From positions 77,621 through 141,620 of the forward strand of contig JARIGK010000004.1 of NCBI GenBank assembly GCA_029288895.1: a stretch of 64,000 bases of DNA. The letters run 5' to 3'. Within the stretch, counting starts at the first letter, position 1, and each line of letters begins with the position of its first letter. The DNA comes from Candidatus Adlerbacteria bacterium. GTDB taxonomy: Bacteria; Patescibacteriota; Minisyncoccia; Phycocordibacterales; SBAW01. Shown here piece by piece: positions 34,238 through 39,751 of the stretch. The position numbers and the translations under genes are program-made. Below the pieces are notes generated by a model. It worked only from the letters and a program-made list of their open reading frames with translations, was not told the DNA's origin and made no database searches.

Positions 34238-35431
34238 ATGGCAACATTTGAACGTGCAAAGCCGCACATGAACGTCGGCACCATCGGCCACGTCGACCAC
34301 GGAAAGACGACCTTGACGGCGTCTATCCTCCACACCCTCGACATGCTGAAAGCAGAGGGCTACAGCGCCCGCGTCGAAGGCGTTGACGGTATCGACAACG
34401 CGCCGGAAGAAAAGGCTCGCGGTATCACCATCGCGCTCCACCACTCGGAATACGAGTCGCCGAAGCGCCACTACGCGCACATCGACGCTCCGGGCCACGC
34501 AGACTACATCAAGAACATGATCACCGGCGCAGCCCAGATGGACGGCGCAGTGCTCGTGGTTGCAGCAACTGACGGCGTTATGCCTCAGACTCGCGAACAC
34601 ATCCTCCTCGCAAAGCAGGTTGGTGTGCCGAAGATCATCTGCTTCCTCAACAAGTGCGACATGGTTGACGACAAGGATCTTATCGACCTCGTCGAAGAAG
34701 AAGTAAAGGAAGCTCTTGCAAAGCAGGGCTACGCTGATGCTCCGGTTATCCGCGGCTCAGGCCTCAAGGCTCTCGAGAGCACTGACATCAACAATGAGTG
34801 GTCACAGAAGGTCAAAGACCTCATCGACACCATGGACAGCTACTATCCGGACCCAGTCCGCGAAACTGATAAGCCGTTCCTCATGCCTATCGAAGACATC
34901 TTCTCGATCGAAGGCCGCGGTACCGTGGTTACGGGCCGTATCGAACGCGGTGTAGTTAAGGTTGGTGAAGAAGTCGAAATCGTCGGCTTGGAAGCTACAA
35001 CTAAGACCACCATCACTGGTATCGAAATGTTCAACAAGCAGTTGGACACTGGTATGGCAGGCGACAACGCGGGCATCTTGCTCCGCGGTACAAAGAAGGA
35101 AGACATCCACCGCGGCCAGGTTTTGGCTAAGGCTGGCTCTGTGACTCCTCACACTGAGTTCGAAGGCGAGGTATACATCTTGACCAAGGACGAAGGTGGC
35201 CGCCACACGCCGTTCTTCTCTGGCTACAAGCCACAGTTCTATATCCGCACCACTGACGTTACGGGCGAAGTGACGCTTGCTGCAGGTACTGAAATGGTTA
35301 TGCCGGGCGACACCGTCACCTTTAAGGTGAAGTTGGTAGCGCCGGTTGCGCTTGAAGAGAAGACTCGTTTCGCAGTCCGCGAAGGCGGTAAGACCGTCGG
35401 CGCAGGCGTCGTTACGAAGATTGTTGCGTAA
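34238..35431 (+). CDS. tuf: elongation factor Tu
   Basis: '[12 protein letters not shown]', 'DAPGHADY' and 'NKCD' G-motifs. 397 aa. Confidence 0.97.
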
Positions 35432-35451
35432 GTAACTCTCACACTTGAAAA

Positions 35452-35490
35452 AGAAAGGCCCCGCAGAAATGCGGGGTTTTTCGTTCTTAT
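35452..35490. terminator. bidirectional terminator (aaaggccccgca-gaaa-tgcggggttttt)
   Basis: GC hairpin flanked by A- and T-runs after tuf. Confidence 0.75.
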
Positions 35491-35708
35491 ACGCAGCCCA
35501 TGGCTTTAGGAACTCGGGGCGTAAAGTCTCTGGGCTTGTGACTACGTGAGAGCCTAAGGCTCAAAACATCATAGGCGCTCAGGTTGTAGTCCTTCGCGTG
35601 CTGCCAGGCGAGCCTCTGGTCGCCCTTGTCTCGGGCTTCCTTGGCTAGCCTCATCCCATCCTGGTGTTGCTTCACGATTGCGAACTGCTTCTCAGCATTG
35701 ATATACAT
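35487..35708 (-). CDS. hypothetical small basic protein (74 aa)
   Basis: Start at Met 35708 (MYINAEKQF...) with GAGGAGG 5 nt upstream on the minus strand. The track's longer form (35747) lacks an RBS. Confidence 0.4.
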   Translation of the reverse strand: MYINAEKQFAIVKQHQDGMRLAKEARDKGDQRLAWQHAKDYNLSAYDVLSLRLSRSHKPRDFTPRVPKAMGCV

Positions 35709-35765
35709 CGCCGCCTCCTCTAATTTCCTCTGTCGCCATCCTAACACGAGAGATTTAATTTAGCG

Positions 35766-35794
35766 TTGCAATTAAGGCAGCAATGAGGCATACT
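35766..35794 (+). promoter_or_regulatory. sigma70-type promoter TTGCAA-N17-CATACT upstream of rpsJ
   Basis: TTGCAA 35766-71, CATACT 35789-94. Leader ~75 nt to ATG 35873. Confidence 0.5.
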
Positions 35795-35872
35795 CACAGA
35801 CGGTTAGATTTATTAGGAGTTAGCTAAAAGGTACTAGGTTACTTCGAAAGAAGAGAACTAGATCCAAACAAC

Positions 35873-36241
35873 ATGGCAACCGAAGAAACAAAGAAAGCTC
35901 CGGCAAAGCGCACCAAGAAGGCAGAGCCTGCATCGGCGCAGAAGCTCCGCATCAAGGTCCGCGCCTACGAGCACAAAGTTCTTGATCAGTCTGTGCGCCA
36001 GATTATGGACACCGCGCTTCGCTACGATGCGAAGATTGCAGGCCCGATCCCGCTGCCAACTGAAATCAAGAAGTACACGGTCAACCGCTCAACCTTCATC
36101 TACAAGGATGCGCGCGAGCAGTTCGAGATGCGCATTCATAAGCGTGTCATCGACATCCTCGAGCCTAATGCCAAGGTGATCGAAGCATTGACCAACCTCT
36201 CGCTGCCTTCGGGCGTGACGATCGAGGTCAAAATGATCTAA
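35873..36241 (+). CDS. rpsJ: 30S ribosomal protein S10 (with ~20-aa basic N-terminal extension)
   Basis: 'KLRIKVRAYEHKVLDQSVRQIMDTALRYDAKIAGPIPLPT' uS10 core. Confidence 0.92.
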   Translation: MATEETKKAPAKRTKKAEPASAQKLRIKVRAYEHKVLDQSVRQIMDTALRYDAKIAGPIPLPTEIKKYTVNRSTFIYKDAREQFEMRIHKRVIDILEPNAKVIEALTNLSLPSGVTIEVKMI

Positions 36242-36267
36242 ACGACACAATCAAGTCGAAAAACAAA

Positions 36268-36296
36268 GAACCTTCCAGCAATGGGAGGTTTTTTGT
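36268..36296 (+). terminator. terminator/attenuator hairpin after rpsJ (ccttcc-agcaat-gggagg + TTTTTTGTTTG)
   Basis: 6-bp stem with one G-U pair followed by a T6 run. Unexpected inside the S10 operon. Confidence 0.5.
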
Positions 36297-36313
36297 TTGT
36301 AGCAGGGATGTAC

Positions 36314-36342
36314 TTGCTATTTTCATGAAACTATGCTATATT
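36314..36342 (+). promoter_or_regulatory. strong sigma70-type promoter TTGCTA-N17-TATATT
   Basis: TTGCTA 36314-19, TATATT 36337-42. It would drive a ~450-nt untranslated leader before rplC. Confidence 0.55.
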
Positions 36343-36348
36343 GATGAG

Positions 36349-36790
36349 GTTCGGGTGGCCCCACCGCCCGGATTTCTACCCTCACTGGGCGGCAGGTATT
36401 CTGCTGTGTTGCTCCCCACATCCCCCGGAAGCAACCCTCGAGTAGGATGCTGTCGTCCAGTGAGACCTCGTTTCGGTCTTTTTGAAATTTATTTCTACTG
36501 CAGTCTGGGAGACGCAGAGGAGGAGCTCGTCGAAGCAAGGTGGCCAGGAAACTGTCCTCTGGGCAAGTCGATAGGATTCTTTGGTACCTTGCTTTGGCGG
36601 GTTTCCCTTCTCTCAAACTACACAGTTCTTTGTTTGTTCGAGCCCTCGCCATTTGGTGAGGGTTTCTGCTTTTTGGGCTCCATACATTGGACCACCCTAT
36701 GTATTTGCATAATTTATACACCTCGTGTATAGTCTCGTGGACTCTTACATAGAGTTGATCCACGTCCCGGGCGCCAAGCCCAGAGGGACC
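36349..36790 (+). other. ~440-nt GC-rich structured untranslated region between rpsJ and rplC (candidate leader/ncRNA)
   Basis: No convincing ORF: both overlapping track ORFs are Pro/Gly/Cys-rich and run into rplC. Multiple nested GC hairpins, e.g. ccgccc...gggcgg and gagccc...gggctc (36651-36691). Confidence 0.25.
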
Positions 36791-36800
36791 ACTAGACAAC

Positions 36801-37424
36801 ATGAAGTTTATACTCGGCGAAAAGCAGCATATGGTCACCATCTTTGATGAAGATGGTATTGCGCATGCAGCAACGATTGTTGTTGCAACCCCCGCAACGG
36901 TGACCCAGATCAAAACCACTGAAAAGGAAGGCTACAACGCTGTCCAAATCGGCCAGGGCGAGGCAAAAGAAAACCGCGTCAACAAGGCACAGGTTGGCCA
37001 CGCAAAGGGCAAAGCATTGAAGAATTTCCGCGAACTCCGCCAGCGCGATGGCAAACTCCCTGAAGGTGTCGAAGTTGGCGCATCGATCGATGTCTCTGCA
37101 TTTGCAGCAGGCGAGAAGGTACAAGTCTCGGCAATCTCAAAAGGTAAGGGCTTCCAAGGCGTAGTGAAGCGCCACGGCTTCCATGGCGGCCCACGCAGCC
37201 ACGGCCAGAAGCACAGCGAACGCGCACCGGGTTCTATCGGTGGCTCGGGTGGCCGCGCAGGCGGTCGCGTTGCAAAGGGTATGCGCATGGCAGGCCGCAT
37301 GGGCCAGGACCGCGTAACCGTCCGCAACTTGAAGGTCCTCCAGGTGCACCCAGAAACCCACGAAATTGTTATCGCAGGTGCTATCCCGGGCCGCCGCGGC
37401 ACGCTTGTTGAAATCCGTGGCTAA
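36801..37424 (+). CDS. rplC: 50S ribosomal protein L3
   Basis: 'GKGFQGVVKRHGF' and 'GGPRSHGQKHSERAPGSIG' uL3 signatures. Confidence 0.95.
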   Translation: MKFILGEKQHMVTIFDEDGIAHAATIVVATPATVTQIKTTEKEGYNAVQIGQGEAKENRVNKAQVGHAKGKALKNFRELRQRDGKLPEGVEVGASIDVSAFAAGEKVQVSAISKGKGFQGVVKRHGFHGGPRSHGQKHSERAPGSIGGSGGRAGGRVAKGMRMAGRMGQDRVTVRNLKVLQVHPETHEIVIAGAIPGRRGTLVEIRG

Positions 37425-39262: not shown

Positions 39263-39298
39263 AAAAATCCCCGCCCTAAGGCGGGGATTGTCGTTGTT
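39263..39298. repeat. direct repeat copy L: aaaaATCCCCGCC-ctaa-GGCGGGGATTGTCGTT (terminator-like hairpin)
   Basis: 9-bp GC stem. Apart from the loop it is identical to the copy at 39716-39749. Immediately after the rplB stop. Confidence 0.7.
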
Positions 39299-39339
39299 GT
39301 GTCGCGTGGTAGTATCGATGCGGACAAGGAGGCTTACTA

Positions 39340-39684
39340 ATGCCAATTAAATTTCTGATTGTCGCAGGCGCTACACTGCTCTTGGGCAGCTGGATTTTCT
39401 CATCGTATCGGTGGCACAATCGTTATGATCAGCTTCGAAGTCTCATGAAGTTCAACATAGGCGACCGAGTCGTTAGGATGGGGCGCGTAGACATACACAG
39501 CCCCATCGATTACACGATGGACCCGTACCTTCCGACCCGTATGGGGCAGTGTATCGATATTGCTGTGCGAAGAGCCACTGGCACGGTAGAGAAATTCAAT
39601 ATCGTGCGCTGTTCTTCCTTGTGGGACGGCGGTCCCTTCCGGAACATGACTTCGGAGGACTATCATCGACGTGTTGTGTGCTAA
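39340..39684 (+). CDS. hypothetical membrane-anchored protein (114 aa) inserted between rplB and rpsS
   Basis: AAGGAGG 8 nt upstream of the ATG. N-terminal TM 'FLIVAGATLLLGSWIFSSY'. Putative promoter TTGTCG-N16-TAGTAT (39289-39316). Followed by an agccc/gggct hairpin + TTTTTCTTTTT (39685-39711). Confidence 0.5.
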   Translation: MPIKFLIVAGATLLLGSWIFSSYRWHNRYDQLRSLMKFNIGDRVVRMGRVDIHSPIDYTMDPYLPTRMGQCIDIAVRRATGTVEKFNIVRCSSLWDGGPFRNMTSEDYHRRVVC

Positions 39685-39715
39685 AGCCCGTAGAGGGCTT
39701 TTTCTTTTTCCAAAA

Positions 39716-39751
39716 ATAAATCCCCGCCGAAAGGCGGGGATTGTCGTTAGA
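39716..39751. repeat. direct repeat copy R: aaaATCCCCGCC-gaaa-GGCGGGGATTGTCGTT
   Basis: Second copy of the rplB-proximal hairpin element. On the minus strand it is followed by 'tttatttttgg', serving as the terminator of the minus-strand gene 39747..39953. Confidence 0.7.

Follow-up and report, generated by a model that had tools for sequence, protein, structure and literature searches.

A probable stand-alone structured RNA gene between rpsJ and rplC in a narrow Adlerbacteria-like subclade

The gap between rpsJ and rplC in the 64-kb stretch of DNA analysed here (the window) probably holds a stand-alone small-RNA gene, inserted between the terminator of rpsJ and the promoter of rplC. Its predicted plus-strand product is about 330 nt long and would consist of three domains, D1, D2 and D3. 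The closest L3 proteins to that of the window come from Patescibacteria (Candidate Phyla Radiation, CPR), and the named ones among them from Candidatus Adlerbacteria, Paceibacterota and Minisyncoccia. According to the list of open reading frames (ORFs), the plus-strand cluster of ribosomal protein (r-protein) genes contains tuf (34238–35431), rpsJ (35873–36241; S10/NusE, 122 aa, Pfam PF00338, E = 7e-33), rplC (36801–37424; L3, 207 aa, homologues with PF00297), rplD, rplW, rplB and others. The rpsJ stop codon ends at 36241 and rplC starts at 36801, leaving 559 nt (36242–36800), as an earlier sequence-only reading had described. That reading offered three origins for the gap: a relocated r-protein autoregulatory leader, an unrecognised non-coding RNA or a degraded insertion. 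The second gained support from a conserved promoter and terminator of its own, compensatory changes, no Rfam match and no conserved ORF; the other two lost ground. The best overall label is a lineage-restricted, fast-evolving, stand-alone structured RNA. Its kind is known, that of stand-alone structured bacterial RNA genes, and the family is without counterpart in Rfam 15 or in the searched literature. As far as the sequences indicate, it has the general attributes of such a gene, namely its own promoter, an intrinsic terminator, orthologous positions and a conserved structure.

The predicted transcription signals delimit the gene. In the promoter scan, the promoter P1 (36314–36342) reads TTGCTA, 17 nt and TGcTATATT. 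The TTGCTA-N17-TATATT pair had been noted before, and a TG extension precedes the −10 element. The −35 element TTGMWW and the extended −10 element 'ATATGnTAnnnT' are kept in the related loci L161, L164, L168, L170 and L175. Transcription would start at P1 and stop at T2, an intrinsic terminator found by the terminator scan at 36640–36680 (stem 36640–36665, U-tract to ~36676) and kept in all homologues with a changed stem sequence. The structured RNA thus delimited by folding and by its homologues spans 36346–36676, with a 5' end predicted at about 36347–36350 and a 3' end in the U-tract of T2. Upstream of P1, the terminator scan confirmed the hairpin and T6 reported after rpsJ. This intrinsic terminator, T1 (36272–36295), is built of CUUCC-loop-GGAGG (stem 36272–36288) followed by U6 (TTTTTTG), and an equivalent hairpin and U-tract is present in all relatives. 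Between the rpsJ stop codon and T1, the 14-nt word CAAUCAAGUCGAAA (36249–36262) is conserved in all clade members, whether or not they carry the RNA. It appears to mark the end of the rpsJ unit and lies outside the RNA gene.

Downstream of T2, a palindrome ATACAT-N11-ATGTAT (36682–36704, no strand assigned) adjoins the −35 element of a second promoter, and other hairpins occupy this place in relatives. This promoter, P2 (36704–36733), was found by the promoter scan as TTTGCA, 18 nt and TATAGT, and is assigned to the rplC operon. Its sequence 'TTTGCATAAAAT...TCGTGTATAGTC' is almost invariant across all relatives, including L001 and L179, which lack the RNA. A conserved 62-nt rplC leader follows (36739–36800), with a hairpin GUCCC...GGGAC (36764–36789) and then CACUAGACAAC-AUG. 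The sequence-only reading had described a transcript of about 440 nt reading into rplC. That description missed T2 and P2, both conserved in relatives; the structured RNA is about 330 nt and stops short of rplC. Because P2 and the conserved leader intervene and suffice in relatives without the RNA, the RNA would be independent of rplC. The proposal of a relocated r-protein autoregulatory leader is weakened by the same arrangement, since L001 and L179/L180 keep the promoter and leader without the RNA. An r-protein autoregulatory mRNA leader is part of its mRNA, with no terminator or promoter between, and was rejected as a class for this element.

The plus strand of the region folds far more stably than expected by chance, in agreement with the strong structure noted earlier. 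For 338 nt, the predicted energy is −157.8 kcal/mol against −116 ± 6 in dinucleotide shuffles (z = −6.9). The reverse complement of the same region gives −111.9 kcal/mol (z = −2.1), and a repeat fold on the exact RNA span gives z = −7.7 for the plus strand and −2.4 for the minus strand. G-U pairs make up 25 of the 117 predicted pairs on the plus strand and 8 of the 96 on the minus strand. Because of this stability and G-U excess, selection seems to act on an RNA rather than on a DNA palindrome. A repeated palindromic element, or one like a miniature inverted-repeat transposable element, was rejected on the same asymmetry and on the single copy of the sequence in 64 kb. The region had also been called GC-rich. 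This did not hold, as the GC content of the gap (0.48–0.535) is at or under that of the flanking genes (0.49–0.66).

In the minimum free energy structures, D1 (36346–36376) is a 13-bp 5' hairpin that varies in relatives. It is followed by D2 (36381–36464), a long irregular hairpin; a long hairpin stands at the same position in L161, L168, L170 and L175. The AU-rich linker (36465–36505) contains a small hairpin and GGUCUUUUUGAAA (36476–36488), and the relatives have GUUCUUU(U) at this place. D3 (36507–36614) is predicted to consist of an outer helix P-a, an inner conserved helix P-b and a variable apical extension. P-a pairs GGGAGA (36507–36512) with UCUCUC (36609–36614), and P-b pairs AGCUCGUCGAAGC (36524–36536) with GCUUUGGCGGGUU (36591–36603) over 13 bp, as supported by covariation and by RNAalifold. 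Between D3 and T2 lies a single-stranded conserved tail CAGUUCUUUGUUUGUU (36623–36638), which was aligned in alignment A5, stood out in the shared 6-mer count and contains a word resembling the BoxA core (GUUCUUU, 36625–36631).

The rpsJ–rplC junction was surveyed in 80 species-representative loci, and some other searches covered 180 loci taken from genomes, metagenomes and assemblies. The junction ranges from 0 to 3560 nt over the 70 loci with both genes and is often long in Patescibacteria, which contradicts the statement that rpsJ and rplC are normally separated by a few dozen bp. Searches of the gap against the 80 loci and against the window itself by BLASTN and nhmmer gave no similarity outside the gap, and the rpsJ–rplC gaps of the 80 species showed no sequence resemblance to that of the window and no known RNA family. 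A metagenome-contig locus search with L3 gave relatives of at most 63% identity; close relatives were reached through L3 homologues and the contigs encoding them. Among these, a cassette at the same site was found in six lineages: the window, L161–163 (L3 identity 93%), L164 (92%), L168 (87%), L170/171 (86%) and L175–177 (87%). The cassette comprises an upstream terminator, P1, a structured non-coding stretch, T2, P2 and the rplC leader. The RNA spans 334 nt in the window, 303 in L161, 159 in L164 (which has neither D1 nor D2), 312 in L168, 285 in L170 and 339 in L175. In L001 (L3 identity 79%) and L179/180, which lack the cassette, T1 runs straight into P2 and the leader. The cassette is restricted to a narrow Adlerbacteria-like subclade, and its distribution clearly marks it as an accessory element, inserted where insertions tend to accumulate.

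Two further elements were observed at this junction. In L165 (2676–3000), L166, L169, L172, L174 and L178, another conserved element, non-coding and about 200 nt long ('type B', ...GGUUAGUUUGUUCGCGAUCGCA..., then two terminator-like hairpins), lies upstream of P2; it is often beside a DUF1761 gene, and its beginning is similar to the tail of the window RNA. In L170 (2400–2900), about 480 nt of inserted sequence, in which small ORFs lie on the minus strand, divides the rplC promoter region, with TTTGCAWAAAAT on both sides, like a target duplication.

BLAST detects only the flanks of the RNA, namely the rpsJ 3' untranslated region with T1 and P1 (77% identity to L161) and P2 with the leader (77–87%). 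Inside the RNA, no similarity was found by BLAST among the homologues, even at 93% L3 identity. What is conserved there is P-b, the surrounding GGGAG/CUCCC helix and the single-stranded (A)GUUCUU(U). On the hand alignment A6 of six sequences, 98.7% of the P-b cells are paired, and 7 of the 13 pairs are altered on both sides. This level of covariation was reached by none of 500 column shuffles, and sliding the partner strand by 1–3 columns reduced the pairing to 22–47%. A comparison of the same junction in relatives, which the earlier reading had proposed as a check, thus gave compensatory changes. RNAalifold, on a separate MAFFT alignment of trimmed sequences, predicted P-b and T2 and left the conserved tail between them unpaired. 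When the whole RNA or D3 was aligned with MAFFT, the result was non-structural and was set aside. A covariance model built from five sequences, with L175 left out, retrieved L175 with E = 0.004. Over 660 kb of patescibacterial loci, the additional matches of the model (L087, L026, L108) were plain terminators, and no members were found beyond the subclade. In most of the RNAs, GGGAG(G)/(C)CUCCC surrounds P-b. A short loop caps P-b in L168 and L170, whereas in the others it carries a 40–60-nt apical extension. The rest of the RNA appears to diverge nearly at the neutral rate and yet to stay base-paired in the predicted folds. All six RNAs give plus-strand z values from −4.0 to −7.7 (window −6.9 to −7.7, five homologues −4.0 to −6.0), and in five of the six the plus strand is more stable than the minus strand, with more G-U pairs.

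These results bear on the view that the gap is a non-functional remnant: a decaying gene, a mobile-element fragment or a hairpin-rich spacer between duplicated terminator–promoter junctions. Insertions are indeed frequent at this junction, where relatives have unrelated sequences (a DUF1761 gene, other ORFs, the type B element), the presence of the cassette varies among close relatives, its interior is beyond recognition by BLAST even in the closest one, and T1–P1 resembles T2–P2 in L175. A remnant is nevertheless quite unlikely to have retained promoter and terminator in six lineages, together with the compensatory changes in P-b, the excess stability in every homologue and the G-U bias on the plus strand. 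Moreover, no further copies were found in the 64-kb window or in 660 kb of related loci, and there is no trace of an ORF. The covariation and the conserved transcription signals likewise make the degraded insertion of the earlier reading unlikely.

The possibility that the gap is a protein gene or a frameshifted pseudogene, for example the 135-aa plus-strand ORF at 36325–36732, deserves almost no credence. In the window, one stop-free frame crosses the cassette on each strand. The plus-strand ORF, however, begins within P1, and its Cys/Pro/Gly-rich make-up is not protein-like. Neither the 135-aa ORF (+) nor the 198-aa ORF (−) has a Pfam match, and neither is kept open in relatives, where every frame of the region has 2–11 stops. 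In tblastx, the central 340 nt showed no similarity to the relatives. The earlier statement that the stretch has no credible ORF is borne out, and the homology check for a frameshifted or pseudogenised gene, by Pfam and tblastx, gave no trace of one.

Known RNA families were also searched for. Rfam 15, which includes r-protein leaders and EAR, gave no family at the gathering threshold in the whole window, in line with the earlier failure to recognise transfer-messenger RNA (tmRNA), RNase P, signal recognition particle (SRP) RNA or 6S RNA. At E <= 10, the region 35400–37000 gave terminator-like chance matches only, and no family recurred across five homologous loci. ARAGORN found no tRNA or tmRNA, and nothing on the window RNA was found in the literature searched. 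A 6S RNA was rejected as a candidate, since 6S RNA forms one rod, about 180 nt long, whose large bubble at the centre mimics an open promoter, whereas the RNAs of full size (285–339 nt) have three separate hairpin domains and no match to RF00013.

The shared single-stranded word gives a hint of function. GTTCTT is the most shared 6-mer, with 10 copies in five of the six RNAs, a result seen in none of 300 shuffles. Four of the six RNAs have two copies of the GUUCUU(U) core, and the window RNA has one. The GTTCTT copies are located in the AU-rich linker after D2 and in the unpaired tail, 8–10 nt before T2. BoxA, the RNA site of NusB–S10(NusE), has the core GUUCUUU. GTTCTT corresponds to positions 1–6 of the gamma-proteobacterial BoxA consensus GYTCTTTAANA (Baniulyte et al., 2017, PMC5725501), a consensus that may not be that of the host lineage. 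The linker copies closest to BoxA are GUUCUUUUGAAAA in L175 and that of the window, and the 3' half of BoxA is matched in some linker copies only. The L175 linker is near-identical to GTTCTTTGAAAACT, a classic primer site in the Mollicutes 16S–23S spacer; the BoxA of Mollicutes spacers is of the type GUUCUUUGAAAA, and the box A of the cyanobacterial internal transcribed spacer is GAACCTTGAAAA. The match to the BoxA core suggests, without establishing, a link to S10/Nus factors or to the transcription of the r-protein operon.

The RNA probably serves as a platform offering a helix and single-stranded words to a protein partner, and not as a leader of rplC. In the leaders of ribosomal RNA operons (rrn), a hairpin followed by BoxA (GYUCUUU) forms the boxB–boxA order. 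S10 is encoded directly upstream of the RNA in four of the six lineages. Our preferred mechanism, which is tentative and has the odds against it, is that the hairpin-plus-GUUCUUU modules mimic this order and bind NusB–S10. The RNA would then either act as a sink for free S10/Nus factors or deliver them to RNA polymerase started at P1. In a fuller and still doubtful form, the RNA would be a module like an rRNA leader, with two hairpin-plus-BoxA units behind a strong promoter, placed as a separate unit at the head of the main r-protein operon. By binding NusB–S10, it would tie either the transcription of that operon or the supply of S10 to the Nus machinery.

Several points weigh against the RNA gene or against the Nus step proposed for it. 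P1 and T2, on which the order of promoter, RNA of about 330 nt and terminator depends, are predicted signals. Six distinct sequences are known, all from one narrow clade, and the cassette is dispensable because sister lineages do not have it. D1 and D2 gave no convincing alignment across the homologues, and a search with the covariance model did not identify D2 as another instance of the D3 module. For the helix, the alignment was manual, on 'mini' sequences, with apical parts replaced by N, one loop base cut in L170 and one bulged C cut in L164, and this is a source of bias. The Nus step is rated low because the BoxA match is a core of 6–7 nt, with a poor 3' (AANA) half in the tail copies; because the 180 loci show no enrichment of GYTCTTT upstream of rpsJ and rplC, and several matches there are codons for 'TPFF' of EF-Tu; because rRNA 5' leaders, sought in the window and in the 180 loci for comparison with the host BoxA, were not present there; and because rpsJ is not the neighbour of the cassette in L168 or L170. 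The sequence 3' of 16S in two distant loci, L049 and L074, gave no information on BoxA.

The position of the cassette directly upstream of the rplC promoter and leader in every carrier, including L168 and L170 without their rpsJ neighbour, is also what a cis-acting leader of the rplC operon would show. Polymerase started at P1 would be modified by Nus factors or by the RNA itself and would read through T2 and the terminators of the cluster (processive antitermination), or T2 would be an attenuator controlled by an r-protein. The hairpin-then-GYUCUUU order of rrn leaders fits such a role, as do the last GUUCUUU 8–10 nt ahead of the T2 stem and an r-protein cluster broken by terminators and inserted genes (for example at 39268–39300 and 39719–39750). 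We regard it as unlikely, however, as T2 has the canonical form of a strong terminator, like T1, and T2 is separated from rplC by the fully conserved P2 and its leader, which are enough in relatives without the cassette. On inspection of the sequences by eye, no antiterminator pairing with an arm of T2 was consistent across the homologues, and a riboswitch-like alternative pairing of P-b with T2 was rejected as inconsistent in the same way. Complexes of the rrn type also act mainly on Rho-dependent termination and less on intrinsic termination, which counts against this role.

Comparison with known systems shows the same mixture of likeness and difference. The rrn antitermination leader (boxB hairpin, BoxA and boxC, bound by NusB–S10/NusE, NusA, NusG and SuhB) resembles the window RNA in the hairpin followed by single-stranded GYUCUUU, with the module present twice, in its place directly after a strong promoter, and in the genomic tie of the window RNA to S10 (NusE) and the r-protein cluster. 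The window RNA, however, precedes a canonical terminator and not an rRNA gene, and matches the 5' core of BoxA only; its binding of NusB–S10 is putative, proposed from sequence. The cis-acting processive antitermination RNAs HK022 put and EAR are likewise stem-loop RNAs between the promoter and the first terminator of a long operon, but have no sequence or size similarity to the window element, and a second promoter separates the latter from the operon. Protein-sequestering small RNAs (6S RNA, Ms1, CsrB/RsmZ) are alike in being stand-alone, with their own promoter and terminator, structure kept over sequence and repeated short motifs; the window RNA has neither the rod and central bubble of 6S type nor GGA-loop repeats, and no Rfam match to these families. 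The Escherichia coli S10-operon leader, which acts by L4 attenuation and translational control, is also a structured RNA with a terminator hairpin at the S10/L3/L4 cluster. It precedes rpsJ and is part of the mRNA, whereas the window RNA is not, and rplC has its own conserved leader. No Rfam or sequence similarity was found between the two, and the E. coli type of leader is confined to Gammaproteobacteria (PMC3616713).

BoxAs in mRNA leaders, in E. coli suhB and upstream of rpsJ in some gamma-proteobacteria (PMC5725501), share with the window RNA a BoxA-like word beside a gene for a Nus factor or S10 outside rRNA operons. Those BoxAs affect the gene whose start codon follows within 50 nt, whereas the words of the window RNA lie in a separate non-coding transcript downstream of rpsJ. 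For the putative BoxAs upstream of rpsJ, NusE autoregulation has been proposed (PMC5725501). In AT-rich loci of other Patescibacteria, L027 (~3548), L116 (~2467) and L110, the BoxA-like words UUGCUCUUUUAAAACA, UUGUUCUUUUAAUUAAAA and CUGUUCUUUAAAGA were observed within about 20 nt of the rpsJ start. These words recall that proposal, with no statistical enrichment overall.

The same word could instead act by base pairing. As a trans-acting antisense RNA, the single-stranded AGUUCUU(U) would control the synthesis of S10 by pairing with the (G)AGAACU found shortly before the start codon in the rpsJ 5' leader. The word is predicted to be unpaired, and the tail or linker copy shows 8–10 bp of complementarity to GAGAACUAG, a conserved segment of the rpsJ leader, in three genomes (the window, L168 and L175). 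We consider this role very unlikely, however: the L161 leader is altered (GGUCACUAG) with no matching change in the RNA, L164 pairs over 5 bp only, and the leader word is as conserved in genomes without the cassette. The 8-mer is also statistically weak; a 15-nt version has 5 matches in the window against 2.1 expected.

Both leaders flanking this region were observed to be conserved. The rpsJ leader (window ~35800–35872; L161–L178) has the form UUAGGAGUAAGCUAA..GUAUAGGUUAC, a variable hairpin and GAGAACUAGAYY.AACAAC(U)AUG, without a canonical Shine–Dalgarno sequence at normal spacing, and its final part is similar to the end of the rplC leader. The hairpin of the rplC leader covaries (GUCCC/GGGAC in the window, GUUCC/GGAAC in L001) and is followed by CAMUAGACAAC-AUG (window 36704–36800; L001, L164–L180). 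The rplC-leader word GTTGATCCAYGT is present in 15 clade loci. From its sequence, this leader of about 62 nt downstream of P2 is a candidate r-protein leader, without an Rfam entry. A scan of viral contigs with the word gave 120 chance matches, none of them in a leader context.

Other junctions of the cluster also show additional material. At the rplB–rpsS junction (39268–39750), a plus-strand ORF (39341–39685, ~114 aa, with the ribosome-binding site AAGGAGG) is flanked by two near-identical terminators AAATCCCCGCC..AAGGCGGGGATTGTCGTT (39268–39300 and 39719–39750), and relatives have other small ORFs there. The arrangement resembles the insertion of an accessory gene accompanied by a duplicated terminator. 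The tuf–rpsJ gap (35432–35872) is 441 nt in the window against about 70–100 nt in relatives. It contains a bidirectional terminator (35453–35482) and an 86-aa minus-strand ORF (35487–35747) without a Pfam match, and its AT skew is consistent with minus-strand coding. In some Patescibacteria (L049 1–406, L074 1–1056, L060 ~169), the end of a 16S gene lies several kb ahead of the tuf/rpsJ/rplC cluster. Because the 16S gene is followed by a terminator and protein genes and not by 23S, the rRNA genes in these loci are unlinked.

CPR/Patescibacteria have tiny genomes and are not culturable alone, and to our knowledge almost no regulatory RNAs have been described in them. The element reported here is a well-delimited candidate RNA gene whose structure shows covariation, and it lies within the gene cluster that is the most conserved in the cell. 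This lineage appears to have split the cluster into separate transcription units (rpsJ, the RNA, rplC and so on), and promoter and leader are conserved in each. If NusB–S10 does bind the BoxA-like words, the RNA would be a directly testable case in which Nus factors are used elsewhere than in rRNA operons and mRNA leaders. Such an orphan BoxA RNA, serving as a decoy or loader, would be a use of the Nus system so far undescribed, and it would give a handle on the coordination of r-protein and rRNA synthesis in reduced genomes. If the Nus link is false, the RNA would still be a new candidate RNA family, narrow and accessory, for curation of the Rfam type.

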